A stretch of 64,000 nt of DNA, taken from contig MGKQ01000017.1 of NCBI GenBank assembly GCA_001795735.1, forward strand, positions 3,326 to 67,325, given 5' to 3'. Both the position numbers and the translations under genes were made by a program. Each line of letters starts with the position of its first letter. Within the stretch, counting starts at the first letter, position 1. Below, in pieces: positions 16,413-64,000 of the stretch. The notes below the pieces were generated by a model. That model ran no database searches. It had not been told where the DNA came from and was given only the letters and a program-made list of their open reading frames with translations. Source of the stretch: Candidatus Yanofskybacteria bacterium RIFCSPLOWO2_02_FULL_41_13. GTDB lineage: Bacteria > Patescibacteriota > Minisyncoccia > 2-02-FULL-40-12 > GWA2-44-9.

Positions 16413-19055
16413 ATGAAAAAATTAGTCTTAATCGACTCAAACGCCCTAGTCCATCGGGCATTCCATGCTTTGCCCCCAACCCTTACCTCACCTAAGGGTG
16501 TTTTGACCAATGCCGTTTATGGTTTTACGTCAGTTCTCATAAAAATGCTTAAAGATTTAAAACCCGATTATATTGCCGCAACTTATGATTTAGCTGGCCC
16601 TACATTTCGCCATAAGGAATTTGAAGAGTATAAAGCCCACCGGGAGAAAGCCCCTGACGAGCTATACGCCCAGATACCACTAACCAAGGAAGTGCTTAAA
16701 ACATTCGGGATACCCATATATGAGAAACAGGGGTTTGAGGCTGATGACCTAATCGGTGCTTTAGCCGAGAGGGGTAAAAAAGAGAAGAATCTGCAGGTCA
16801 TAATCGTAACCGGCGACTTGGACACTCTTCAGCTGGTTGATAAAGATAAAGTCGTTGTTTTTACATTAAGAAAAGGCTTGACCGACACGGTAACCTACAA
16901 CGAGGGCGAGGTACAAAAAAGATATGGCCTCAAGCCAGAGCAAGTTGTTGATTTTAAGGGATTAAAAGGCGATCCATCCGATAATATCCCAGGAGTACCG
17001 GGGATAGGGGAGAAGACGGCAGCGATGCTTATTCAAAAATTTGGGAGCATGGAGAATCTTTATGACAGTATCGCTGAAATCAAAAATCAAAAATCAAAAA
17101 TCAAAAATCAAGGTTTATCAGAAAAGTTAATACAAAAACTTCAGGAGAATAAAGACCAGGCATTCTTTTCAAAAAAACTGGCCACCATCGTCAGGACGGT
17201 TGATATTGATTTCAGTCTTGAAAAAACAGATTGGCGTAAAAATCTCGATCTCCAAGCAATCGAGAAAACTTTTAAAGACTTCGGCTTTTACAGCTTAGTT
17301 AAAAGATTGTCCGAGATAGATGTACAAAGCTCTATATCAACGCTAGACCTTAACCTAGCGCCAGCCCTACTTCAGGAAAGCACTCATATAAAGTCCTGTG
17401 ACTCAGTGAAAGAAATAAAAAATGCCGTTGATAAAATAAAGCTAAAGAAAGAAGTTGTCCTGGAGCTAGTAGGCGATAGACTGGTATTTACCTCTGATAG
17501 CAAGGAGTTTTTCTCTACAAAAACCGAATTATTGAGCCTCCTAAAAGAAGTTTTCGAGGACGGAAATATATCTAAGACCGGACATGATCTAAAACCTGTA
17601 GCCAAGGAATTTCTTAAAAAAGGTATTCATATTAAGGGCCTGTCTTTTGATACTAAGATAGCGGCCTATCTTGTAAAAGCCGACAGAAAAGACTATGACT
17701 TGCCGATAATGTATCAGAACGAACTAGGCAAAGATCTTGCGGTGGGGGGTGCTAACCGCCTTGATGCGGTCTTAGAACTTAAAAAAATATTTTGGGATAA
17801 GCTAAAGAACGACGGTCTTATTAAAATCTTTGAAGAGATAGAAATGCCGCTGGTTCCGGTTTTGGCCGAAACGGAGCTAAATGGCTTAAAGATAGATATC
17901 AGCTCTCTTAAAAAACTATCGTTATCGGTTAACAAAGAGTTGTCTGGGTTAGAGAAGAAGATACACAAACATGCCGGCACCCAGTTTAATATTAATTCAC
18001 CCAAACAATTAAAGGAGATTCTTTTTGAGAGACTGGGCCTAAAAGGCAAGGTCAGAAAAACAGCTAAGGGCGCCCTTTCAACTGCGGCCGGAGAACTTGA
18101 TAAATTATCAGGCGAACATCCCATTGTTGATCTTATCCTAAAATACAGGGAGCTTCAGAAAATTAAGACTACTTATATTGAACCCTTCCCCCACCTTATT
18201 GACCAAAAGACAGGGAGGCTTCATACGACCCTCAATCAGACGGGTACTGTCACTGGTCGTTTATCAAGCCAAGACCCTAATCTTCAGAATATTCCTATTA
18301 AAACAGAGTTGGGTCAGGAGTTTAGAAAAGCGTTCATCTCATCTCCCGGCTATAAATTAGTGTCTCTTGACTATTCACAGCTTGAACTCAGAATCGCCGC
18401 CCATATTTCCGGTGATAAAAAAATGACCGAAGCGTTTAAAAGAGGGGAGGACATTCATACTCGGACGGCGGTAGAAATTTTTGGAGTCACGCCGGAAAAA
18501 GTCACGGCCAATATGCGCCGGGAGGCAAAAGCTATGAATTTCGGCCTTCTTTATGGAATGGGAATTCTTGGTTTTCAAAGAGCATCGGGTACATCGAGAG
18601 AACAGGCCAAAGAATTCATCAATCGTTATATGGCAGAATTCAGCGGAATTGCCCGATATATGGAGGATATCAAGAAAAAAGCCTGCAAAGACGGTTATGT
18701 TTCGACTATCCTCGGCCGACGCAGATACCTACCGGAGATTAATTCCGGCATACCTCAGCTGATGGCCCAAGCAGAGAGAATGGCTATAAACCACCCTGTT
18801 CAGGGAACCGAGGGGGACTTTCTAAGAATTGCTATGAATAGGATATCCGATTTAATTCACAAAGAGTTCAACGATAACGATGTAAAAATGCTTCTTCAGG
18901 TGCACGATGAGCTTCTGTTTGAGGTTAAAAATAATTTAGTCGAAAAAATATCAAAAGTGATTAAGAGTATCATGGAGTCAGTTTATAGACTCGATGTTCC
19001 GCTTATCGTTGATGCCAGATATGGCAATAACTGGCGGGATATGGAGCCAATTTAG
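16413..19055 (+). CDS. polA: DNA polymerase I
   Basis: N-terminal 5'-3' exonuclease domain. Polymerase motifs A 'DYSQLELRIAAH', B 'RREAKAMNFGLLYG' and C 'VHDELLFEV' are present. Confidence 0.95.
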   Translation: MKKLVLIDSNALVHRAFHALPPTLTSPKGVLTNAVYGFTSVLIKMLKDLKPDYIAATYDLAGPTFRHKEFEEYKAHREKAPDELYAQIPLTKEVLKTFGIPIYEKQGFEADDLIGALAERGKKEKNLQVIIVTGDLDTLQLVDKDKVVVFTLRKGLTDTVTYNEGEVQKRYGLKPEQVVDFKGLKGDPSDNIPGVPGIGEKTAAMLIQKFGSMENLYDSIAEIKNQKSKIKNQGLSEKLIQKLQENKDQAFFSKKLATIVRTVDIDFSLEKTDWRKNLDLQAIEKTFKDFGFYSLVKRLSEIDVQSSISTLDLNLAPALLQESTHIKSCDSVKEIKNAVDKIKLKKEVVLELVGDRLVFTSDSKEFFSTKTELLSLLKEVFEDGNISKTGHDLKPVAKEFLKKGIHIKGLSFDTKIAAYLVKADRKDYDLPIMYQNELGKDLAVGGANRLDAVLELKKIFWDKLKNDGLIKIFEEIEMPLVPVLAETELNGLKIDISSLKKLSLSVNKELSGLEKKIHKHAGTQFNINSPKQLKEILFERLGLKGKVRKTAKGALSTAAGELDKLSGEHPIVDLILKYRELQKIKTTYIEPFPHLIDQKTGRLHTTLNQTGTVTGRLSSQDPNLQNIPIKTELGQEFRKAFISSPGYKLVSLDYSQLELRIAAHISGDKKMTEAFKRGEDIHTRTAVEIFGVTPEKVTANMRREAKAMNFGLLYGMGILGFQRASGTSREQAKEFINRYMAEFSGIARYMEDIKKKACKDGYVSTILGRRRYLPEINSGIPQLMAQAERMAINHPVQGTEGDFLRIAMNRISDLIHKEFNDNDVKMLLQVHDELLFEVKNNLVEKISKVIKSIMESVYRLDVPLIVDARYGNNWRDMEPI

Positions 19056-19056
19056 T

Positions 19057-19974
19057 ATTCCGGAACTTCCAGAGGTAGAAACAATTGTCAGGGAATTGCG
19101 CAAAAAAATAATCGGTTTGAGAATAACCGATTTTTGGTCCGATAAAGAAAAGCCTGTCAAACAAGCTGGGGGAGTGGCTAAGTTTAAGAAAGAAATTACC
19201 GGCAAAGAAATAGTGGGCATTTTCCGTCGAGCTAAATTCATAGTTATTGATATTAAGGGCAATAAGTCAATTTTTATTCATCAGAAAATATCCGGCCACC
19301 TTATGTACGGCCAATGGAAGTTAAAAGTTAAAAGTGAAAAGTTAAAAGTGAAAGAAAAAGATCAAGAAACATGGATCTCGACAATACCGGGTCCTCTAGA
19401 AAATGACCGGCAAAATCAGTATATCCGATACATTTGGACATTAAGTAATGGTTATCAGCTGGCGATGTCAGATTTACGCCGTTTTAGCAGAGTAATCTTA
19501 GTTAAAGACAAGGATGTCTCAAACCTTAAAGAAATACGCAATCTGGGGCCGGAGCCTTTAGATATAAAATTTGATCAGTTTAAGAAATTATTTCAAACAA
19601 AGAGAGGGAGTTTAAAGCCTGCCTTAATGGACCCGTTCTTTATCGTCGGCATAGGCAATATATACAGCGACGAAATACTCTGGGACGCCGGCTACCACCC
19701 CTTGTCCAGAGTCGAAAAGCTCAAAGAATTAGACTTGATAAAAATATTCCGGTCAACTAATAAAATTTTAAAAAAAGCGATAAAATTAAAGGGTGACAGC
19801 ATGGACGATTACCGTCTGCCGTCTGGAGAAAAAGGGGGCTATCAAAACATCCAGAAAGCCTATCAGCAGACTGGTAAAAAATGTGCAAAAAAAGACGGAG
19901 GAACAGTCCAAAGAATCAAAGTCGGCGGACGATCGGCCCATTTCTGTTTTAAACATCAAAAAATAATAAAATGA
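19057..19974 (+). CDS. mutM: formamidopyrimidine-DNA glycosylase (Fpg/Nei family), probably initiating at ATT
   Basis: The catalytic N-terminus 'PELPEVET' must directly follow the initiator. The codon before Pro is ATT (19057-19059), with GGAG 10 nt upstream. Track ORF 18994..19974 would add 21 aa and bury the catalytic Pro. Confidence 0.65.
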   Translation: MPELPEVETIVRELRKKIIGLRITDFWSDKEKPVKQAGGVAKFKKEITGKEIVGIFRRAKFIVIDIKGNKSIFIHQKISGHLMYGQWKLKVKSEKLKVKEKDQETWISTIPGPLENDRQNQYIRYIWTLSNGYQLAMSDLRRFSRVILVKDKDVSNLKEIRNLGPEPLDIKFDQFKKLFQTKRGSLKPALMDPFFIVGIGNIYSDEILWDAGYHPLSRVEKLKELDLIKIFRSTNKILKKAIKLKGDSMDDYRLPSGEKGGYQNIQKAYQQTGKKCAKKDGGTVQRIKVGGRSAHFCFKHQKIIK

Positions 19975-32269: not shown

Positions 32270-33829
32270 ATGCCTGATTATCTCCATATCGGACGAGCAA
32301 GCGATTTAGCTGAAAAAAGAGATAGAAGAGTCTATCGAGCTTTTGAAATAATGCCCGGTCTTTTAGCCTGGACAACCATATTATTAATAATTCTCCTTTC
32401 ATTCTTTGTACCAGTTTTTATCGCTGTTTTTATTATAATTTTCGACGTTTATTGGTTTATAAAGACGCTTTATCTCTCGCTTCACCTCCGAGTTTCTTAT
32501 AATAAGCTCCGTGAAAATTTAAAGATCAACTGGCTCGAAGAACTTAACAACCTACAACCTACAACCTACAACCTACAACTAAAATCCTGGCGGGATATTT
32601 ATCATGTAATTTTTCTGCCTCTGTATAAAGAAGATTTTTCTTTAGTCTCTGCTTCAATGGAGGGATTATTAAAAAGCAACTATCCCAAAGAAAAAATGAT
32701 TGTTGTTCTATGCTGGGAAGAGAGGGGAGGGGAAGCAACCAGACAGACGACTGAAGAAATAGAAAAGACATATGGCAACAAATTTTATAAATTTCTATCT
32801 ACTATGCATCCCGCTGGCCTTCAGGGAGAAATGCCCGGCAAAGGATCAAATACCGCTTATGGCGCCCGAGTAGCTAAGGAACAGATCATTGATAGACTAG
32901 AAATACCCTATAGCCATATTTTGGTTTCCAACCTCGATATAGATACCGTTGTTTTTCCTGAATATTTTGGAGTTCTTACCTACACATTTTTAATGACCGA
33001 TAGGCCGCTCAGGGCCTCTTACCAGCCTGTGCCGCTGTATATAAATAATATCTGGGAGGCTCCTTCGTTTGCCAGAGTCGTAGCTTTTTCGGCAACTTTT
33101 TGGCACACCATCAAACAGGAGAAGCACGAAACGGCAACGACTTTTTCTTCCCACTCAATGCCTTGGCAGGCTTTGGTTGATGTTGATTTTTGGCAGAAGA
33201 ATATGGTTTCAGAAGATTCAAGAATATTTTGGCAGTGCTTTCTCCGCTACAATGGTGACTACCGGGTAGTACCGATGTATTATCCGGTATCGATGGATGC
33301 CAATGTGGCTTACACGTCATGGCAAACATTTAAAAATGTGTATAAGCAACAGCGGCGCTGGGGCTATGGCGTAGAAAACGTCCCTTATTTTCTTTTCGGA
33401 TTTGTTAAAAATAAGGCTATTCCTAAACTTAAAAAATGGAAGTACGGTTTTATGATAGTTGAGGGGTTCCATTCATGGGCAACCAATGCCCTAATAATAT
33501 TTCTTCTTGGCTGGTTGCCGGTCATTGTCGGGGGTTCAGAGTTCAATAAAAGTATCCTATCTTTTAACCTGCCGTTTATAACCAGGACTATTATGACAAT
33601 CTCCATGATAGGTCTTGTCTCAACGGCTGTTCTATCAATTGTCCTTCTTCCGCCTCGTCCGCCCAAATTCGGCAAGTTCAAGTACCTCTGGATGGTTCTT
33701 CAGTGGCTTTTATTCCCCATTACCACTATCGGCTTAGGCCTGTTACCGGGCCTAGAAGCACAGACTCGGCTAATGCTCGGAAAATATATGGGATTTTGGG
33801 TAACGCCAAAAATTCGAATTGTAAAATAA
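32270..33829 (+). CDS. integral-membrane family-2 glycosyltransferase, cellulose/chitin-synthase-like
   Basis: Multiple TM segments. 'DxD'-type 'NLDIDT'. Q(Q/R)xRW motif 'YKQQRRWGYG'. Confidence 0.65.
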   Translation: MPDYLHIGRASDLAEKRDRRVYRAFEIMPGLLAWTTILLIILLSFFVPVFIAVFIIIFDVYWFIKTLYLSLHLRVSYNKLRENLKINWLEELNNLQPTTYNLQLKSWRDIYHVIFLPLYKEDFSLVSASMEGLLKSNYPKEKMIVVLCWEERGGEATRQTTEEIEKTYGNKFYKFLSTMHPAGLQGEMPGKGSNTAYGARVAKEQIIDRLEIPYSHILVSNLDIDTVVFPEYFGVLTYTFLMTDRPLRASYQPVPLYINNIWEAPSFARVVAFSATFWHTIKQEKHETATTFSSHSMPWQALVDVDFWQKNMVSEDSRIFWQCFLRYNGDYRVVPMYYPVSMDANVAYTSWQTFKNVYKQQRRWGYGVENVPYFLFGFVKNKAIPKLKKWKYGFMIVEGFHSWATNALIIFLLGWLPVIVGGSEFNKSILSFNLPFITRTIMTISMIGLVSTAVLSIVLLPPRPPKFGKFKYLWMVLQWLLFPITTIGLGLLPGLEAQTRLMLGKYMGFWVTPKIRIVK

Positions 33830-34581: not shown

Positions 34582-34893
34582 CTATCTTAATATCCCTTAA
34601 GTCTCGGTTGATTTACTAAGAGAACAAGTGGATAAAATCTTTCCTTATCGTTTTTGATAACCGTTGCAAGAGGGTTAGGTATAAATAATAGCTTACCTAA
34701 AACCGACCCGCTTCGCCGGAGCTTCAGCGAGGCGAGCAGGAAAGCTTAAGGCGAAGGTTCACTGGAGGAACTTCCAGGGAATCGCCTCCGAAACTGACTG
34801 AAAGGAATTTCGGAAGGCCTTCCGGAGGTTTTAAGCCATTATTTGTCTAACCCGAAGCTCAGGTTGAGAAAATAATGAGGAAAGATTTTATAA

Positions 34894-37347
34894 CTACTCA
34901 AAGTGGGTCAGCTTCTGGAATGACTCTAGTTTATCCCTAAGGAGAGGATAGTTATTAAGCGATGGATCTTTTTTGAGAAGTAGGCGAGCCTCGGCGCGGG
35001 CTTTTTTAATTAAATCTATATTGGCAAGCGAAGCCATACCGAGGTCAGGCATTCCAGATTGTTTAACCCCGAAGAATTCTCCCGGCCCTCGTATTTTCAT
35101 ATCTTTCTCGGCCAGTTCAAAACCATCATCACACTCAACTAAGGCTTTCAGTCTTTGATTTATTGATTTATCTCCCGAAGAAGAGAAAAGAATACAGTGA
35201 GATTGGTGCTCTCCTCGTCCTACTCGCCCCCTGAACTGATGAAGCTGGGCCAAGCCGAACCTTTCGGCGCTTTCGATCGCCATAATAGTTGCATTTGGGA
35301 TATCTATGCCGACTTCAATTACTGACGTAGAGACAAGAATATCAAATTCTTTATTTTTAAATTTACCCATTATTTCATTCTTAACTTTTGGTTTTAATTT
35401 ACCGTGAAGCATAGCAACTCTCAGATCCGGAAATACAAGTTCCGATAATTTTTTATATTCTTCCTCAACGGCCTTAACTTCCTGCCAAAGAATATTCATC
35501 TTGCTTTGCGGAGAACCGGTTTTTATCTCTTTCTTGGGATCGCTTAGTTCTATCCTGGGGCAGACGACAAATACCTGCCGGCCGTCTCTAACTTCATCTC
35601 TTATGAACTGATATGTTTCTTTCTTCTGGGTGGGCGTGATCACTTTAGTAATTATTTTTTGTCTGTTTTTTGGTTTTTCTTTTATCAGGGATATATCTAA
35701 ATCTCCGTATATAGTAAGGGCCAGGGTACGGGGGATAGGGGTGGCAGTCATACTCAGCAAGTGAGGTACCACTTGCTGAGAATTTCCAATTTCTCCCGAT
35801 TCGCTTTCGCGAATCGCGGATCCTCGATTGCGAAGCAATCGGGACAATTTCCAATTTCCAATATTTGAGATTTCTGATTTTGAATTTGTAATTTGCTTAG
35901 GATTTGGTTTTTGTAGTTCGGAGTTTTTAAGCAGTGCCTTGCGCTGATTAATTCCAAAGCGATGCTGTTCATCAATTACCACCATCGCCAATTTATCAAA
36001 TGAAACATCTTTCTGGATAATGGCATGAGTACCGATTATAATTTGAACCTGCCCCGAAGCAATCTTTTCCTTGATAATTTTTTTAGATACCGACTGTCCG
36101 TTTAACTTAGCTTCCGAGCCTATCAGTAATCCGATATTTATTTCGTTTTCTAAACTTTGAGAGCTTTGATGTTTGATTTGATTGGAAATTGGAAATTGTC
36201 CCGATTGCTTCGCAATCGAGGATCCGCGATTCGCGAAAGCGAATCGGGAGAAATTGGAAATTAACGATGTAATCGTTCGATAATGCTGTTGAGCCAGAAC
36301 TTCAGTTGGTACCATAAAAACAGTCTGGTAACCCCCCTTGGCAATCTGATAGGAGGCAGTTAGGGCAACCACAGTTTTACCGCTTCCGACGTCTCCTTCC
36401 ATTAACCTGTTCATCGGATAACTTTTTTGAAGGTCTTTGAGAATCTCCCATAAGGAAACCTTCTGATCAATGGTCAGCTCAAATGGCAGACGGCCTATGA
36501 AATCCTGAATCAGTGCCTGATCGAAAGGTACTGAAATTGATTTAAGCTGATTTATTTTCCTTCTCTCAAGAAGAGCTTTTATCTGAAAGAGTAGGAGGTC
36601 TTCAAAAGCAAATCTTTCTCTGGCCGAATCGGCATCTTTTAAATTTTTCGGATAATGGATATCTGAAAGAGCCTCAGATATTCTCGGGAAGCTGTACTTA
36701 TCCAAAATCGTCTGAGGTAGCGGCTCGTCGGCTTTTATGTTCTTGAGAAGCGGCTTGATTAAAAATCTGAGATATTTTGAAGTTATTCCTTCGGTCTCAG
36801 GATAAACTGGCACGAGACCGGAGGTGTGTTTCAAGCTAGAATTTTGAATTTTGAATTTTGAATTTTGAATTTCACCTTCTTGATTCAGAACCCTTAATTC
36901 ATTACCCATCATTCTCTCATATGTTGGACTGGAGAGGTATAGGCCGTGTTTATTCAAGTTAGCCTTTCCAGCAAGGCTAACCATAGCACCCTCAACTAGC
37001 TGATTTTCAATATATGGCTGATTAAACCAGACAACTTTGATCGCTCCGCTGGAATCACCGACAATGGCGTTAGTAACGGTCAGTCGGCGGGGGAATATCC
37101 TTTTACTTGAGATCTTTAAAACTTCCCCCTGAACATTTACTTTTTGACCAGGTTCTACCTGATTTATAGGCATTACTTCGCTATAATCTTCATAGCGAAC
37201 TGGGAAATGCCAGAGAAGATCTCTTATGGTTTTAATTCCTAATCTATTGAGACGCGAAAGATTCCGCGAACCGACATTTTTAAGTTTTTCGATCGGAAAC
37301 AATAGGTTATCCATAGAGATAATAACGAAGTCCTGTATCTGGGGCAT
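34894..37347 (-). CDS. recG: ATP-dependent DNA helicase RecG, carrying two in-frame repeat-element insertions
   Basis: Wedge/OB N-terminus. Helicase motifs 'GDVGSGKTVVAL', 'DEQHRFG', 'LSMTATPIPRTLA', 'MLHGKL' and 'QFRGRVGRG'. Extra peptides are encoded by elements at 35781-35863 and 36181-36262. Confidence 0.9.
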   Translation of the reverse strand: MPQIQDFVIISMDNLLFPIEKLKNVGSRNLSRLNRLGIKTIRDLLWHFPVRYEDYSEVMPINQVEPGQKVNVQGEVLKISSKRIFPRRLTVTNAIVGDSSGAIKVVWFNQPYIENQLVEGAMVSLAGKANLNKHGLYLSSPTYERMMGNELRVLNQEGEIQNSKFKIQNSSLKHTSGLVPVYPETEGITSKYLRFLIKPLLKNIKADEPLPQTILDKYSFPRISEALSDIHYPKNLKDADSARERFAFEDLLLFQIKALLERRKINQLKSISVPFDQALIQDFIGRLPFELTIDQKVSLWEILKDLQKSYPMNRLMEGDVGSGKTVVALTASYQIAKGGYQTVFMVPTEVLAQQHYRTITSLISNFSRFAFANRGSSIAKQSGQFPISNQIKHQSSQSLENEINIGLLIGSEAKLNGQSVSKKIIKEKIASGQVQIIIGTHAIIQKDVSFDKLAMVVIDEQHRFGINQRKALLKNSELQKPNPKQITNSKSEISNIGNWKLSRLLRNRGSAIRESESGEIGNSQQVVPHLLSMTATPIPRTLALTIYGDLDISLIKEKPKNRQKIITKVITPTQKKETYQFIRDEVRDGRQVFVVCPRIELSDPKKEIKTGSPQSKMNILWQEVKAVEEEYKKLSELVFPDLRVAMLHGKLKPKVKNEIMGKFKNKEFDILVSTSVIEVGIDIPNATIMAIESAERFGLAQLHQFRGRVGRGEHQSHCILFSSSGDKSINQRLKALVECDDGFELAEKDMKIRGPGEFFGVKQSGMPDLGMASLANIDLIKKARAEARLLLKKDPSLNNYPLLRDKLESFQKLTHFE
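35781..35863. repeat. palindromic MITE/RPE-like element, copy A, inside recG
   Basis: 'aatttccaatttctcccgattcgctttcgcgaatcgcggatcctcgattgcgaagcaatcgggacaatttccaatttccaat'. It has terminal inverted repeats and the internal hairpin cgattcgc-tttc-gcgaatcg. Confidence 0.75.
36181..36262. repeat. palindromic MITE/RPE-like element, copy B, inside recG
   Basis: Near-exact reverse complement of copy A, about 320 bp away. recG stays open through both copies. Confidence 0.75.
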
Positions 37348-40341: not shown

Positions 40342-40405
40342 TTGTGAGGTGCAGGCGGGGATTGCACCCGCGAATCGCGGTTTTGTCCCGATTGATAAAA
40401 AATCC

Positions 40406-40480
40406 TGGAGGCGGCAGGGAGAATCGAACTCCCGTATAGTTCTTTTGCAGAGAACTGCCTTGCCACTTGGCTATGCCGCC
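40406..40480 (-). tRNA. tRNA-Cys (GCA)
   Basis: Cloverleaf with anticodon GCA. CCA is encoded. Flanked on both sides by partial copies of the palindromic element. Confidence 0.8.
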
Positions 40481-40490
40481 AAGATTTTTT

Positions 40491-40549
40491 ATCAATCGCG
40501 GATCCTCGATTTCTATTTAAATCTTAATATATCTACAGAAATCGGGACA
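40491..40549. repeat. palindromic element copy beside tRNA-Cys; a partial copy also lies at 40365-40396
   Basis: 'atcaatcgcggatcctcgatttc...gaaatcgggacag' shares the core with the recG and leuS copies. Confidence 0.6.
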
Positions 40550-40649
40550 GATGGTCGCGTTACTACTTCGCCACTGCACCATATTTTATATTACCACTTG
40601 CCTGCCCGCCGAAGCTTTAGCGAAGGCGGGGCTATGCCGCCATGAACTT

Positions 40650-45513: not shown

Positions 45514-46578
45514 GTGCCAAACGAACACATTCACGTACAACTAAATACCAACACCATTTTAAGAGGAATACTCTGGATTGTTTTCTTTATACTGCTGTAT
45601 GTTCTGAAGGACGTAATAATTATATTTCTTTTTGCAATTATTATAGCTTCATCAATATCGCCGTTTGCCAACTGGCTGGATTCAAAAGGGCTTCCTCGTT
45701 TGTTCGGAGTCTTGGGCCTCTATCTGTTGGTTTTAGGATCAATTGTTTTCGTACTTTCTCTAGTGGTGCCGTATATTGCTGAAGAAGTTTCTCAATTATC
45801 AACTACGCTCCCCAACATTGTTCAAAGGCTATCAAGCTCGCTTGAGGATGTTCAACAGGGATCGCCTCAGTATTTTGATTTTGTCAGCGAGATACAGAAC
45901 ATGCTTGATACTTTTTCTGTCTATCTTCAGCAATCATCGCAGTCTGTTCTAAGCTTAGTTGTCAGTATTTTTGGAGGAGTGTTATCGTTTATCGCAATAA
46001 TCATAATTTCTTTTTATCTTGCAGTGATGAAGCGGGGGATAGAAAGTTTTATAGAATCGGTAGTTCCGGCGCGTCAGGAAGCTTATGTTATGGATCTATG
46101 GAAAAGGTCAGAAGCCAAAGTCGGACGCTGGATTCAGGGCCAATTGCTCCTAGCTCTCATAGTCGGCTTAACCGTATATATCGGCCTCTCTTTGATGGGT
46201 ATTAAGTTTGCTCTTGTTCTGGGTATTCTGGCTATGGCTTTTGAAATAGTTCCGATTGTCGGTCCGGTATTGGCGGCTATTCCGGCGGTTTTCTTTGCTT
46301 TTTTACAGGATCCGGGACTGGGCTTATGGGTTATAATTTTTTACATACTTGTTCAGCAGTTGGAAAATCACCTGTTAGTTCCGGTAGTATTAGGCAAAAC
46401 AACCGGGCTAAATCCCGTAGTTGTCATTATGGCGTTGTTAATCGGCAACCAGATTGCCGGGATTTCTGGAATGGTGCTGTCTGTTCCAATCGCAACTGTA
46501 ATCGTTGAGATGCTGGAAGATTTGGCAAAACATAAGGAAGAGGCGAAACATAATGGCACCACACCGGTGGTGCAATGA
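45514..46578 (+). CDS. AI-2E family transporter (PerM/YhhT-like)
   Basis: Eight TM-segment pattern. Conserved C-terminal 'LVPVVLGKTTGLNPVVVIMALLIG'. Confidence 0.7.
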   Translation: MPNEHIHVQLNTNTILRGILWIVFFILLYVLKDVIIIFLFAIIIASSISPFANWLDSKGLPRLFGVLGLYLLVLGSIVFVLSLVVPYIAEEVSQLSTTLPNIVQRLSSSLEDVQQGSPQYFDFVSEIQNMLDTFSVYLQQSSQSVLSLVVSIFGGVLSFIAIIIISFYLAVMKRGIESFIESVVPARQEAYVMDLWKRSEAKVGRWIQGQLLLALIVGLTVYIGLSLMGIKFALVLGILAMAFEIVPIVGPVLAAIPAVFFAFLQDPGLGLWVIIFYILVQQLENHLLVPVVLGKTTGLNPVVVIMALLIGNQIAGISGMVLSVPIATVIVEMLEDLAKHKEEAKHNGTTPVVQ

Positions 46579-46683
46579 CCAATTTCCAATTTCCAATTTC
46601 CAATGAATTTTCAATAGTTCAATGTTCTAAACAATTAAAGCATTGGTAAATTGATATATTCAATGAAAATTGAGAATTGGTAA

Positions 46684-52681: not shown

Positions 52682-53469
52682 TTTTTGACTCTCACTGCCA
52701 TCCGCAGATGGAACAATATGATAAAGACCGAGAAGAAATGTTAAAACGCGCCCGCGAAGCGGGCGTTCTTATGATTTGCGTAGGGACAGATTTGGAGACC
52801 TCAAAGAAGGGGATTGAACTGGCTCAGAAAAATGATGGAATGTGGGCGACAGTCGGTCTACATCCGAACGATATCACCGATGGGTTTGATGTTATGGCGT
52901 ATCATAACATGTTGCTAGACTCAAAAGTCGTGGCGATAGGGGAGGTGGGGCTGGATTATTACCGTACTCCTGAACCGGGAAAACAGAAAAAACAAAAAGA
53001 ATTTTTTGAGCAATTCATAGATTTAGCCCAGAAAACAAAAAAACCATTGATACTTCATTTTCGCGATAGTTCCAAGGGAAGTTCAGGTAGGGTTCATAAA
53101 GATGCCATCAAGATTCTAGATTCTAGATTCAAAATTCAAAATTCTGGTCTTTGCGGCGTAGCCCATTCTTTTACGGGGAACATGGATGACGCAAAAAAAT
53201 ATCTGGATCTAGGTTTTTGTTTAGGATTTAATGGAATTTTAACTTTCACTAAACAATACGATGATGTAGTTAAATATATTCCGCTTGACCGGATACTTCT
53301 TGAAACCGACGCACCATTTCTTTCGCCTGAACCGTATCGTGGCAAAAGAAATGAACCGGCATATGTTGTCGAGGTTGCTAAAAAAATTGCGGAACTAAAA
53401 AATGAATCATTGGAAAAGGTAATTGAACAGACGACGAATAATTGTAAAAAACTATTTAAACTGGTATAA
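52678..53469 (+). CDS. tatD: TatD-family metal-dependent DNase/hydrolase
   Basis: 'MIFDSHCHPQ', 'GEVGLDY' and 'ETDAPFL'. Confidence 0.85.
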   Translation: MIFDSHCHPQMEQYDKDREEMLKRAREAGVLMICVGTDLETSKKGIELAQKNDGMWATVGLHPNDITDGFDVMAYHNMLLDSKVVAIGEVGLDYYRTPEPGKQKKQKEFFEQFIDLAQKTKKPLILHFRDSSKGSSGRVHKDAIKILDSRFKIQNSGLCGVAHSFTGNMDDAKKYLDLGFCLGFNGILTFTKQYDDVVKYIPLDRILLETDAPFLSPEPYRGKRNEPAYVVEVAKKIAELKNESLEKVIEQTTNNCKKLFKLV

Positions 53470-55049: not shown

Positions 55050-55084
55050 TTGAAGTATAATCCAAATAAAATTGAGAGAAAATG

Positions 55085-55154
55085 GTCCCGATTTTGTTCA
55101 AGCATAGCTTGATTACAAAATCGAGGATCCGCGATTCGCGAAGCGAATCGGGAC
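55085..55154. repeat. palindromic element copy in the leuS 5' region
   Basis: 'ggtcccgatt...aatcgaggatccgcgattcgcgaagcgaatcgggac'. TIRs are gtcccgatt / aatcgggac. Internal hairpin cgattcgc-gaa-gcgaatcg. Confidence 0.7.
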
Positions 55155-55160
55155 AGAAAT

Positions 55161-57851
55161 ATGAAGTATCAACCATCTAAAATCGAAAAGAAGTGGCAAA
55201 AATATTGGGAGACCAAGAAGATTTATCGCGCAAATGATAAGTCAAGAAAACCACACTATTATCAACTGGAAACCTTTCCATATCCATCTGCGGCTGGGCT
55301 TCACGTCGGACACCCCAAGGGCTATATTGCCGAAGATATTCATGCTCGTTTTATGCGAATGAACGGAAATGAGGTTCTGTATACAATGGGCTGGGATGCC
55401 TTTGGTTTGCCCACAGAAAACTACGCAATAAAAATTAATAAAAGTCCTCAAGAAGTAGCAACGTCTAGCATAAAGAATTTTAAACGACAGGTTAAAATGT
55501 TCGGTCTCTCATATGACTGGGACAGGGAAATTAATACCTCCTCGCCCGGATATTATAAGTGGACACAGTGGTTGTTTGTTCAGATGTTTAAAAGGGGGTT
55601 AGCCTATCAGAAATCTGCAAAAGTAAATTGGTGTCCGAAAGACCAGACGGTTTTAGCGAATGAGCAGGTTGTAGATGGAAAGTGTGAGCGTTGCGGCGAA
55701 GTTACAACTCAAAAAGAAATGAAGCAATGGTTTTTTAAGATAACTAATTATGCGGATAGATTACTCAAGGATTTAGAGGGGCTGGACTGGCCGGAAGCAA
55801 CAATTAAGAAGCAAAAAGACTGGGTAGGTAAATCTGAAGGAGCAAAATTAAAATTTAAGCTGATAAACATTCCCGGCCAGCCAGATAAAAAACATTTTGT
55901 GAAAGTATTTACGACTAGACCCGATACTTTATTTGGGGCGACTTTTGCTGTGGTGTCGCCTGAGCTTGCTAAAAAATGGCTTGATGCTGGATGGCAAGTT
56001 AATGACAGCGTAAAAAAATATATTAATGATAGCTTAAATAAAAAAGAGTTAGATAGGCTGGCTGAAGCTGGAGATAAGACGGGAATTGATTCTGGGATTA
56101 GGGCAGTAAACCCTGCCAACAAAGAAGAGATTCCTGTCTGGGTTGCCGATTATGTTTTGGGCGGTTACGGCACCGGAGCAATCATGGCCGTTCCTGCGCA
56201 TGATGAAAGGGATTTTAAATTTGCAGAAAAATTTAATTTGCCAGTTAAAACAGTAATTTCCCCTAACTCTGGGGCGTTAGTTAAATTCTTAAATAGAAGT
56301 CTTGTTTCCGACTGGAAAGATAAAGTACTAAATAATTATCCGTATTCATCAACTAGTGAATTTATTGAATTTTCAGTTTCTCCTGAAGGATTAGACAAAT
56401 TTATCTCTATTGGACAATCTTTGCTTAGAGAGGGTCCCTACTATTTCAGTATTCGTGGTAAGTCAAAGCTCATTGCATATAAAGATGCAGTATTTGATAT
56501 TTTTCAGAGCGAAGAAAATGTGAAAGCAAAAACTTACGGCAGAGAAAAAAGAATTCCAGAGAATGAATTGAGTTGGAGTACGGCATACGAAGAAAAGGGC
56601 ATACTTATTAATTCAGGTAAGTTCGATGGCCTTGACTCAGAAAAAGCCAAATGGGAAATTACAAAATTTGTTGGAGGAGAGAGACAAGTCCAATATAAGA
56701 TAAGAGATTGGTCTGTATCACGGCAAAGATATTGGGGAGTTCCAATTCCTGTCATCTATTGCGATAAATGTGGCGTTGTTCCGGTTCCCGATAAGGATCT
56801 TCCGGTTAAATTGCCAATATTGAAGGGTTATAGACCCAAAGGCGTTCCGCCATTAGCCAGCTCAAAAAAGTTTTTGGAAGTTAAGTGTCCAAACTGTAAT
56901 TCTTTAGCTCGGAGAGACGCTGAAACTTTGGATACTTTCGTAGATTCTTCTTGGTACTATCTTCGCTATACTGATTCAAAAAATAAAAACAAATTTGCTG
57001 ACGAACTGAAGCTAAAAACATGGTTGCCAGTTAAACTATACGTGATTGGTGCCGAACACTCAGTCTTGCATTTGCTCTATGCCAGATTTATAGCAAAAGT
57101 TCTTAACGATCAGGGCTATTTGAACTTTAATGAACCATTCTTGAAATTGAGGCATCTGGGTCTTATTCTCGGTACTGATGGACAGAAAATGTCCAAGTCA
57201 AAGGGTAATGTTATCAATCCAGATGGGATAGTCAAAGAATTCGGTGCGGATGCTTTTAGAATGTATGAAATGTTTATGGGTCCGTTTGAAGATGGTCAGC
57301 CTTGGGATACTAAGGGTGTGGTTGGAGTTTATAGGTTTTTAAATAGAATCTGGAATTATGTCGGCCGATATGATGGTAATATTAAACCTAATCTAGAAGC
57401 CCAAAGAATATTAAACAAATTTATAAAAGAGGTGGGAGAAGATATAGGTAGAATGAGTTTTAATACCGGTGTCAGTGGTTTGATGAAGCTTTTGAACGAG
57501 CTTGAATCACATGAAATCTCGAAAGAAGAATATGAAACACTACTCAAGCTATTGGCGCCTTTTGCTCCGCATTTGGCGGAAGAATTGTGGATGGGAGTAT
57601 TAAAAAATAAAAAATCTGTTCATCTTGAAAAGTGGCCGGAATATGACGAAAAATTACTAGCTGAAGAAAAAACAAAGCTAGTAATTCAGGTAAATGGCCG
57701 GGTTAGAGATACTTTTGAAGTTAAAAAAGGTCTTTCCGAAAGTGAGGCAAAAGATTTAGCCCTAAAGAGTGAGAACGTGAGAAGACATATATCCGGAGAA
57801 ATTAAAAAAATTATATATATAAAAGACAGAATAATTAATATTGTTATCTAG
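55161..57851 (+). CDS. leuS: leucyl-tRNA synthetase
   Basis: 'PYPSAAGLHVGHP' (HIGH) and 'KMSKSKGN' (KMSKS). 896 aa. Confidence 0.95.
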   Translation: MKYQPSKIEKKWQKYWETKKIYRANDKSRKPHYYQLETFPYPSAAGLHVGHPKGYIAEDIHARFMRMNGNEVLYTMGWDAFGLPTENYAIKINKSPQEVATSSIKNFKRQVKMFGLSYDWDREINTSSPGYYKWTQWLFVQMFKRGLAYQKSAKVNWCPKDQTVLANEQVVDGKCERCGEVTTQKEMKQWFFKITNYADRLLKDLEGLDWPEATIKKQKDWVGKSEGAKLKFKLINIPGQPDKKHFVKVFTTRPDTLFGATFAVVSPELAKKWLDAGWQVNDSVKKYINDSLNKKELDRLAEAGDKTGIDSGIRAVNPANKEEIPVWVADYVLGGYGTGAIMAVPAHDERDFKFAEKFNLPVKTVISPNSGALVKFLNRSLVSDWKDKVLNNYPYSSTSEFIEFSVSPEGLDKFISIGQSLLREGPYYFSIRGKSKLIAYKDAVFDIFQSEENVKAKTYGREKRIPENELSWSTAYEEKGILINSGKFDGLDSEKAKWEITKFVGGERQVQYKIRDWSVSRQRYWGVPIPVIYCDKCGVVPVPDKDLPVKLPILKGYRPKGVPPLASSKKFLEVKCPNCNSLARRDAETLDTFVDSSWYYLRYTDSKNKNKFADELKLKTWLPVKLYVIGAEHSVLHLLYARFIAKVLNDQGYLNFNEPFLKLRHLGLILGTDGQKMSKSKGNVINPDGIVKEFGADAFRMYEMFMGPFEDGQPWDTKGVVGVYRFLNRIWNYVGRYDGNIKPNLEAQRILNKFIKEVGEDIGRMSFNTGVSGLMKLLNELESHEISKEEYETLLKLLAPFAPHLAEELWMGVLKNKKSVHLEKWPEYDEKLLAEEKTKLVIQVNGRVRDTFEVKKGLSESEAKDLALKSENVRRHISGEIKKIIYIKDRIINIVI

Positions 57852-62077: not shown

Positions 62078-62236
62078 ATAGGGTATAAAGCCTAAGGGTT
62101 GATTATTTCATCTCGCCGAAGCTTTGGCGAAGGTGGATCCGAAGGCCCGGTCGAAATAGTATAAGAATTAGGCTGATATTTGACCATTTCCTACAGCTTT
62201 GCTGTGGGAGGGGATGAGTAGGCAGTCATTAATGAA

Positions 62237-63495: not shown

Positions 63496-64000
63496 ATGAA
63501 GATAGATATAATTACAATCTTTCCAAATTTATTTTCAGGGTTCTTATCCGAATCTCTTTTAGCGCGGGCGCAGAAGAAGAAGTTAATAACAATTAAAACT
63601 CATGACTTAAGAAAATGGACAACCGATAATCACAAAACAGTTGATGATCGGCCGTATGGCGGGGGAGCGGGAATGCTTCTGAAAATAGAACCTATTTTCA
63701 GAGCAGTGGAAAGTTTAAAGTTTAAAGTTAAAAGTAAAAAGACAAGGACTATTTTACTTTCGGCTAAGGGAAAAACATTTACCCAGAAAGATGCACGAAG
63801 ATTATCAAAATGTGACCAGCTGATTTTTATATGCGGAAGATATGAGGGGGTTGATGAAAGAGTGGCTGAATATGTTGCCGATGAGGAAGTATCAATCGGG
63901 AATTATGTTTTGTTCGGAGGGGAAGTGGCCTCGATGGTTGTGATTGAGGCCGTGTCCCGGCTTATTCCGAGAGTTGTTCAAAAAGAAGAATCGATAAAAA
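63496..64000 (+). CDS. trmD: tRNA (guanine37-N1)-methyltransferase, 5' partial, running off the window
   Basis: '[17 protein letters not shown]' and '[16 protein letters not shown]'. Confidence 0.85.

Follow-up and report, generated by a model that had tools for sequence, protein, structure and literature searches.

We examined a 64-kb stretch of DNA from Candidatus Yanofskybacteria bacterium RIFCSPLOWO2_02_FULL_41_13 (contig MGKQ01000017.1, positions 3,326 to 67,325; hereafter the window) and found four copies of a short palindromic element, two in recG, one at a tRNA-Cys locus and one at leuS. The copies were compared with other genome and metagenome loci, which are designated L0xx or L1xx. 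The family copied in recG is inserted DNA that is present or absent between relatives. The element is kept in frame within genes, and it is associated with both a GIY-YIG gene family and tRNA genes. These results suggest, with a probability of about 0.6, that the four copies are derivatives, without an open reading frame (ORF), of a GIY-YIG-associated mobile DNA element that occurs across Patescibacteria and generates no target-site duplication. The coordinates of the features are listed in Table 1.

An earlier note on this DNA (the original prediction) proposed that a palindromic element family was present. The core of the element, its ends and a covariance model all recovered repeated copies. 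With filters off, the covariance model matched four places in the window and nothing else. The 21-nt core GCGAATCGCGGATCCTCGATT occurred four times at ≤3 mismatches, compared to none in 100 shuffles; besides recG, it was located at 55119-55139 and, with 3 mismatches, at 40491-40511. The 9-nt end AATCGGGAC occurred six times in the window against 0.45 expected. The layout common to all copies was TCCCGATT-[A]-AATCG-N-GGATCC-N-CGATT-[B]-AATCGGGA, in which A and B are self-complementary stem-loops that vary in sequence and length. The middle block between hairpins A and B is AATCGNGGATCCNCGATT, and the recG form can be written as TCCCGATT-[hairpin A]-AATCGNGGATCCNCGATT-[hairpin B]-AATCGGGA. The first hairpin follows the formula TCC-CGATT[tip A]AATCG-N-GGA and the second TCC-N-CGATT[tip B]AATCGGGA, so that the complete element repeats a single unit, TCC(N)CGATT-tip-AATCG(N)GGA, twice in tandem. 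Essentially all copies ended in the terminal inverted repeats (G)TCCCGATT / AATCGGGA(C). Short forms measured 50-70 bp with a conserved scaffold of 34 nt, and the conserved blocks were free of stop codons in all six frames.

Either single DNA strand of the element folds as two abutting hairpins (z = -4.5 to -7.6). Each hairpin has one bulged base, three pairs above its foot; the identity of the bulged base differed among copies (C/T, A/T, T/T, A/A), but the bulge itself was always kept. The basal stems were conserved, whereas the tips were diverse in sequence yet self-complementary. In 39 aligned copies, pairing was observed in 98.2% of cells, and slid registers reached at most 59%. Changes on both sides of a pair were found in 100 cells at eight tip pairs, compared to 26 ± 5 in shuffles, and none of the 500 shuffles reached 100. 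Tip pairing extended over about 4 consecutive bp versus 0.7 in shuffles, with 35 different first 4-mers in hairpin A.

The window RecG has 817 aa, compared to 696-764 aa in its orthologues, and the element accounts for this excess size. The protein was 100% identical to a Candidatus Yanofskybacteria RecG record, and the insert-bearing sequence was identical in at least five independently assembled metagenome-assembled genome (MAG) records. The repeat in recG is therefore not an assembly artefact. A population polymorphism of the inserts was considered and rejected, as the 806-aa member of the cluster differed only by an alternative start. The two inverted, in-frame copies that had been predicted in recG were confirmed: an 82-nt inverted repeat lies inside the ORF, its arms are 100% complementary with 318 nt between them, and the peptides quoted in the prediction are found in the translation. 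Tandem Repeats Finder (TRF) detected period-7 repeats in the element flanks at 35845-35862 and 36181-36198. Copy 1 encodes SRFAFANRGSSIAKQSG (RecG residues 367-383) and copy 2 encodes SRLLRNRGSAIRESESG (residues 501-517, between helicase motifs II and III), and both are read through in frame.

The inserted regions, each consisting of the element and array-derived low-complexity sequence, were placed on the structure of Thermotoga maritima RecG (1GM5) by alignment. The region of copy 1 was located between residues 445 and 446, between motifs Ia and II, and that of copy 2 replaced the loop of residues 515-518, which lies between motifs II and III. Thus, the added segments do lie between conserved helicase motifs, as had been proposed. 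The AlphaFold model of RecG was poor (pLDDT 60.7, pTM 0.34), and positions were taken from 1GM5 instead; the inserts appeared unstructured in this low-confidence model, as did a third, array-derived insert in the wedge domain. The perfectly identical 82-nt arms bracket DEQHRFG, so the 318-bp segment with motif II could be imagined as invertible, acting as an on/off switch for RecG. We give this idea almost no credence. The at least five MAG records showed the functional orientation alone, a nearby recombinase gene was not noticed, and the rest of the family consists of single copies; recent copying or gene conversion explains the identity of the arms equally well.

It had been recognised that the segments might be ancestral, in which case related RecGs would contain them. 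Both segments were lacking in 14 other Yanofskybacteria RecGs. The closest relative (L072-L074) is syntenic with about 79% DNA identity, and at the copy 1 site the recG of L073 has a clean empty site, ...AATTTC^CAATTT..., which equals the window sequence minus exactly 51 nt (36199-36249). The sequence of the relative at this first site reads ...TTAATTTCCAATTTC^CAATTTCCAATTTCCAATCAAATC..., and no target-site duplication was found there. At the copy 2 site, the element and about 18 nt of the array were lacking in L073; in place of the AATCGGGA of the window, the relative has AATCAGGA, possibly left over from the element. Since the relative has the array without the element, the aatttccaat flanks are a pre-existing heptamer array. 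These flanks were not present beside the two non-recG copies of the window. The extended flanks, previously regarded as a conserved part of the element, thus belong to an independent array, and the aatttccaat runs at 46574-46600 that had been called related form another such array (46579-46604) without an element or a covariance model match.

The original prediction also described the family as resembling a MITE (a miniature transposable element with inverted repeats). The terminal inverted repeats agree with that description, but the absence of a target-site duplication at the clean empty site does not. An ordinary MITE would be an internally deleted DDE transposon on which the transposase of its parent acts via the 8-9 bp terminal inverted repeats, and the small size, the many copies and the nesting of the element would suit it. 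In addition, 7-nt direct repeats flank the recG copies of the window and the copies of L020, L029 and L041. However, the 7-nt repeats result from insertion into pre-existing arrays, as the empty site of the relative has the same number of units, and a 7-nt target duplication was rejected for this reason. No target duplication was found at the tRNA-Cys, tRNA-Glu, tRNA-Ala or LeuRS insertions, and no full-length transposase-bearing copy was seen in the loci, which were not screened for transposases. We therefore regard the MITE explanation as improbable.

We then compared the tRNA-Cys locus with that of the relative, in which the 67-nt spacer between the IF-2 and epimerase genes holds an ordinary tRNA-Cys(GCA). 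In the window, the resident tRNA-Cys is split within the anticodon, between G34 and C35, by a 162-nt element. In silico removal of 40386-40547 restored CTGCAAAAC exactly, and the healed gene aligned without gaps to the tRNA-Cys in the same spacer of the relative. Even after healing, the gene was not called by ARAGORN. Its anticodon stem is degenerate in the 3' strand, which indicates that the resident gene is a pseudogene. A working, intron-containing resident tRNA-Cys was likewise rejected, since ARAGORN found none over an excision grid or with exact healing. Within the element, an intact tRNA-Cys(GCA) is carried at the hairpin tip on the stem gataaaaaatc/gattttttatc. This cargo gene has the canonical T-loop TTCGATT and an encoded CCA, and it differs in type from the resident gene. 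Because removal restores the split resident gene and the cargo is intact, the two copies once thought to flank tRNA-Cys are one element with a replacement tRNA. The 40365-40396 and 40491-40549 segments are its two ends, and the count of five copies in the original prediction is accordingly reduced to four.

Several other features were observed at this locus. The disrupted resident tRNA-Cys has a perfectly paired acceptor stem and a broken anticodon stem. Its acceptor stem differs from that of L073 (4361-4433) by four compensatory pair changes (GGTGCAG/CTGCACC vs GGCGGCT/AGCCGCC), and the unusual T-loop TGCAATC is common to both genes. Just past the IF-2 stop, at 40591-40641 on the minus strand, there is a decayed 5' fragment of a cargo-type tRNA-Cys (GGCGGCATAGCC...AAGTGG). 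This fragment is split by a GC-rich hairpin, which suggests an earlier insertion at the locus. The hairpin belongs to a second, GC-rich repeat, CCGCCTTCGCTAAAGCTTCGGCGG and its relatives, found at 40606-40629, 62114-62136 and 34714-34736.

The prediction that a copy precedes leuS was correct in that the element lies upstream of the ATG. More precisely, it separates a duplicate of the first 12 leuS codons (55050-55085) from the true start of the gene at 55161 (MKYQPSKIEKKW). A duplicated leuS 5' end with the element was also found in L009, L016, L047 and L063, and the duplicated 5' end occurred in six genomes in all. In the relative L155, the duplicate is a 19-codon upstream ORF with a stop that overlaps the leuS ATG, and of the element just a degenerate right half is left. 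Between the duplicate and the real LeuRS N-terminus of L155, almost all differences are at synonymous sites. This pattern would fit a piece of functional coding sequence that had its evolution elsewhere before the element brought it in, and it would equally fit an upstream ORF under selection. As a separate observation, the window LeuRS, with 896 aa, is longer than many close homologues (roughly 790-830 aa). Only about 41-47% of it is covered in the best local alignments, and further insertions are probably present.

Copies inside protein genes were examined at other loci by removing the element in silico and requiring a junction ORF that was open for at least 60 codons on each side. Among the 14 junctions that satisfied this requirement, 12 had an element with a length that is a multiple of 3 (binomial estimate of about 1e-4 under a chance of 1/3 each). 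A length that is a multiple of 3 means that genic copies are translated as loop insertions. The host genes encode RecG, LeuRS, GpsA, alanine racemase (Alr), ScpA, an ABC-F ATPase, NusA, Fmt, TruB and TsaE, and the TruB gene holds a nested pair of elements. All three frames were used, and seven elements had the same orientation as the host gene while nine had the opposite one. The same positions were occupied repeatedly. In LeuRS, the element followed ..EELW in four MAGs of two lineages; it was at the leuS 5' end in six, in the tRNA-Glu D-loop in three, and at one GpsA position in two (L026 and L068), in opposite orientations.

These data also bear on whether the element is a functional RNA structure, such as an intron-like sequence, an RNase III site, a terminator or a regulator, instead of mobile DNA. 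The strong covariation of the two stems could be read this way, as could copies at intron-type positions in tRNA genes and just upstream of leuS. However, both orientations occur, within one gene as well as overall, and presence or absence differs between relatives. The healed resident tRNA-Cys is degenerate. Moreover, the conserved frame and the replacement tRNAs argue against removal from the transcript, as splicing would make both of them unnecessary. An Rfam scan gave only the three tRNAs at gathering thresholds and chance-level matches at E values up to 10, and a known RNA family was rejected since no Rfam family matched. The element is also unlike group I/II or tRNA introns in that no Rfam intron matched and 51 nt is too short for a catalytic core. 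A functional RNA is thus a highly improbable explanation.

The evidence that ties the element to a nuclease came from its longer forms. The tips of long elements contain an ORF of about 80 aa that corresponds to a GIY-YIG catalytic domain (PF01541, E about 1e-16). This ORF was found inside hairpins in L023, L027 and L050 and beside elements in L043, L046 and L060. For an independent sample, 80 metagenome loci were fetched by the GIY-YIG protein alone, with a query alignment of four sequences. A core-like motif was present in 16/80 loci, and in 15 of these 16 it lay within 150 nt of the ORF. Seven loci (L084, L085, L087, L112, L125, L132 and L139) showed the full layout TCCCGATT-stem-ORF-stem-AATCGNGGATCCNCGATT-[B]-AATCGGGA, with the ORF in hairpin A, and two (L098 and L124) showed it in part. 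The terminal motif TCCCGA/TCGGGA was found beside the ORF in 60/80 loci, at a density of 4.85 per kb compared to 0.58 at more than 500 nt away. The only protein genes seen inside or abutting the examined copies were GIY-YIG genes; no transposase was seen, although the loci were not screened systematically.

The link to tRNA genes was evident in the same loci. A tRNA lay within 200 nt of the ORF in 57/80 GIY-YIG loci, nearly always on the same strand, and 9/70 short elements were within 100 nt of a tRNA compared to a background of 2.3%. In L023, L043 and L046, a tRNA-Glu(CTC) is interrupted by the element at its D-loop, and beside the nuclease gene the element carries an intact tRNA-Glu(CTC). 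In L076, the element with its nuclease is inserted in the anticodon loop of tRNA-Ala (TTTG^CAAG), and an identical intact tRNA-Ala is carried in hairpin B. Partial duplicates of the end of the host gene were found on both sides of the element in L085 and L139. Single-hairpin forms (TCCCGATT-N2-3-AATCGGGA and similar) were observed downstream of the GIY-YIG ORF in L131, L133, L137, L088, L113 and L144. There they replace the anticodon arm of a 5'-truncated duplicate tRNA, adjoined by an intact tRNA with a matching or similar 3' part, and they may be minimal forms or footprints of the element. The possibility that the ends of the element mimic a tRNA anticodon arm was rejected, as CCCGA..TCGGG was found in only 1/144 tRNAs of the loci, a disrupted duplicate.

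To describe the distribution of the family, a species-representative genome set was searched for the exact 18-nt core. The core was found in 71 loci, of which 65, in about 40 MAGs, had the full architecture with the terminal motifs; the remaining loci were chance matches (Nocardia, Pirellulaceae and others). The hosts were Saccharibacteria and Magasanik-, Buchanan-, Giovannoni-, Azam-, Taylor-, Nomura-, Jorgensen-, Brenner- and Tagabacteria. The original prediction had named a lack of further copies as a result that would speak against it. Many copies were found instead, and the family is not confined to this genome, as Saccharibacteria, many Parcubacteria lineages and Magasanikbacteria-like MAGs carry them. 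Diverged cores in the core-bearing loci indicate that the family is larger than the exact-core sample. In L018 and L057, one element is nested within the tip of another. The exact core was not found in viral contigs, and a phage origin was rejected on this basis.

The host set includes MAGs labelled 'uncultured Gammaproteobacteria', which share the element and similar AT-rich flanks. In the one such MAG tested, MurF (L026) showed 83% identity to proteins of the Parcubacteria group and related Patescibacteria. A spread outside the candidate phyla radiation (CPR) was therefore rejected, as these MAGs are Patescibacteria by MurF similarity. Their public organism label looks wrong (CAYIHE01, CAYIJG01, CAZXML01, CAZMYO01 and others; L002-L071). 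These MAGs also have the most copies per genome, with up to 8 contigs bearing the exact core. A motif scan of the loci found no element inside rRNA genes, and such a location was rejected for the examined loci. In L042 (1345-3996, 4122-4236), an element whose tip measures 71 nt is situated upstream of a 16S rRNA gene, at a distance of about 130 nt. From its 8F-like to its 1492-like motif, the rRNA gene measures about 2.65 kb and thus contains insertions of its own.

From the sequences we infer that the GIY-YIG nuclease drives the spread of the element. In the proposed mechanism, a full-length element holds the gene for the nuclease of about 80 aa, and sometimes a tRNA gene, within a hairpin tip. 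The nuclease would act in trans to start movement, probably by a break or nick, followed by homing-like recombinational copying from an element-bearing template. Heptamer arrays would serve as internal homology for this copying. The element enters precisely, without target-site duplication, and copying would bring donor flanks along. Such copying of donor flanks would account for the foreign-type tRNA-Cys, for the mostly synonymous leuS duplicate and for conserved genes as insertion sites. The element would then persist where it does little harm. In genes, lengths that are multiples of 3 would give loop insertions of 17-30 residues, as in recG. In tRNA genes, persisting copies would bring an intact replacement, as in the tRNA-Cys of the window, and at the leuS 5' end the duplicated gene end would keep the gene whole. 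Taken together, the element may represent an undescribed class of mobile element in which a stand-alone nuclease of about 80 aa recognises and mobilises bulged double-hairpin DNA by its structure and not its sequence, without target duplication. Its ORF-less derivatives would have spread in frame through essential genes across Patescibacteria, forming part of the unexplained CPR insertions, and it would be able to carry a replacement for a tRNA gene that it destroyed. We put forward this joint reading tentatively, at somewhat less than even odds.

Several points weigh against a nuclease-driven spread. No GIY-YIG gene of the element-borne subfamily was found in the window, and the four copies there lack an endonuclease gene, unlike their longer relatives. 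The element-borne nuclease is a bare catalytic domain without a recognisable DNA-binding domain, and the insertion sites have no obvious common sequence. For these two reasons, sequence-specific homing is a poor fit. A strand-specificity test by wobble-pair counts gave 18 vs 10, without a clear preference. The nuclease could itself be cargo, and the sharing of orthologous positions between distant lineages might in part go back to old vertical inheritance. Cleavage, movement and the identity of the acting enzyme are presumptive.

The main alternative to the nuclease is a hairpin-specific enzyme, that is, a Y1/HUH transposase, as for IS200/IS605 PATEs and REP/REPIN-RAYT, or a tyrosine recombinase that works on folded single strands, as for integron attC. 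Such an enzyme would recognise the hairpins in trans, with the GIY-YIG and tRNA genes as passengers in the tips. The lack of a target duplication at the recG empty site is in line with such an enzyme. The conserved stem bases, varying bulge and variable terminal loop resemble integron attC sites and the ends of IS608, and the insertions favour hairpin loops (the anticodon loop, the D-loop and the tips of other elements). However, no such gene was seen beside any copy examined, though the loci were not screened systematically. In addition, the terminal motif accompanied 75% of the independent GIY-YIG sample, which is hard to explain for a random passenger. We consider this alternative unlikely.

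We next compared the element with known systems. The reduced genome of Rickettsia contains dispersed short palindromes of about 100-150 bp, the Rickettsia palindromic elements (RPEs). Like RPEs, the element is dispersed and lies in frame in housekeeping genes, where its translation adds loop peptides to the protein. Intergenic DNA and RNA genes are further locations of both. The parallel with RPEs drawn earlier holds to this extent, but the likeness is one of behaviour. The element differs from RPEs in its unrelated lineage, its half size (51-70 vs about 100-150 bp), its double bulged-hairpin scaffold with covarying tips and its GIY-YIG- or tRNA-carrying relatives.

The REP/REPIN-RAYT system, with palindromes of 20-40 nt, and the IS200/IS605-derived PATEs share with the element paired hairpins, compensatory changes and the lack of target duplication. 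Their associated gene is a Y1 transposase, whereas that of the element is a GIY-YIG nuclease. REP superfamilies are defined by GTAG/CGTC heads (PMC3733652). The element has TCCC...GGGA ends with no GTAG/CGTC head, and unlike REP/REPIN it has many intragenic copies. The SegB protein of phage T4 is a free-standing GIY-YIG homing endonuclease in a tRNA gene cluster (PMC2330249; PMC13096335). Nucleases of this type resemble the element in a GIY-YIG gene among or inside tRNA genes, in the transfer of donor flanks and in local duplications. The element shows further features of homing, as its longer forms carry an endonuclease gene, and the element occupies the same sites across genomes and has a known empty allele in recG. 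Unlike SegB, it has a catalytic domain of about 80 aa in the tip of a palindromic scaffold, many ORF-less copies in protein genes, and no phage copy with the exact core. Integron attC sites likewise have conserved foot bases, extrahelical bases, a variable terminal structure and a structure that is conserved above sequence. The element differs from attC in its consensus, its tandem hairpin pair, its location inside genes and the lack of an integrase or cassette context.

A previous report showed that GIY-YIG proteins of CPR rRNA genes are all in insertions unlike group I/II introns (Tsurumaki et al. 2024, PMC11270868). Many uncharacterised, ORF-less CPR rRNA insertions of <200 bp were also reported, mostly at the tops or bases of stem-loops, and palindromes or inverted repeats are not mentioned (PMC11270868). 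These non-intron rRNA insertions may belong to the same family as the element, although no element was seen in the rRNA genes of the loci examined here. A paper on group I introns in Patescibacteria tRNA genes does not mention GIY-YIG, palindromes, hairpins, duplicates, pseudogenes or repeats. In agreement with the claim that the element had not been described, full-text literature searching, with incomplete coverage, found no published description. In its behaviour the element appears closest to RPEs, and its full-length forms appear closest to free-standing GIY-YIG homing endonucleases; we file it under neither.

Patescibacteria have very small genomes, yet their rRNA, tRNA and protein genes are noted for insertions without an explanation. 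The element, for which a covariance model exists, provides a concrete, searchable cause for one class of these insertions. It explains oversized housekeeping proteins such as the window RecG, as well as tRNA pseudogenes on which annotation tools go wrong. In addition, a minimal GIY-YIG nuclease is paired here with a defined DNA structure in a way that can be tested. If this pairing is confirmed, it would represent a new lifestyle of selfish elements, which settle in essential genes and either stay in frame or supply a spare copy of what they break.

Table 1. Positions of the element copies and associated features in the window.
Feature	Position	Strand	Remarks
Element copy 1	36199..36249	-	51 nt; core reads C..T on the minus strand
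Element copy 2	35794..35844	+	51 nt; exact reverse complement of copy 1
Element copy 3	40386..40547	+	162 nt; tRNA gene cargo in hairpin A; partial covariance model match 40471-40550
Element copy 4	55086..55153	-	68 nt; covariance model 62 bits; ends 7 nt upstream of the leuS ATG
recG, 817 aa	34894..37347	-	ORF; Pfam RecG_wedge, DEAD, Helicase_C, RecG_dom3_C
Left arm of 82-nt inverted repeat	35781..35862	.	element plus 13 and 18 nt of heptamer array
Right arm of 82-nt inverted repeat	36181..36262	.	perfect reverse complement of left arm
Peptides proposed as markers of translated element			SRFAFANRGSSIAK, LLRNRGSAIR
Resident tRNA-Cys 5' half	40548..40580	-	ends at G34
Resident tRNA-Cys 3' half	40348..40385	-	starts at C35; anticodon-stem 3' strand degenerate
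Cargo tRNA-Cys(GCA), intact	40406..40480	-	ARAGORN; Rfam tRNA 65 bits
leuS 5'-end duplicate (TTG-KYNPNKIERKW)	55050..55112	+	20-codon upstream ORF, stops within element
leuS	55161..57851	+	ORF, starts MKYQPSKIEKKWQ...; homologues are leucine-tRNA ligases
Heptamer array CCAATTT x3.7	46579..46604	.	TRF; recG-flank unit, no covariance model match, not of the element family

Heptamer arrays were also observed elsewhere. Tandem arrays of 7 nt, with 3.7-5 perfect or near-perfect copies of different units, were the main type of tandem repeat in the window (17077-17111, 19318-19353, 32547-32579, 36839-36872, 46579-46604, 53111-53145 and 63710-63741). Several of them lie inside ORFs and extend the proteins by low-complexity stretches, for example EIQNSKFKIQNS in the wedge domain of RecG. 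The RecG orthologues of Yanofskybacteria have three hypervariable hot spots for array-type insertions, and the elements of L017, L020, L029, L041 and L052 are likewise placed in 7-nt arrays.

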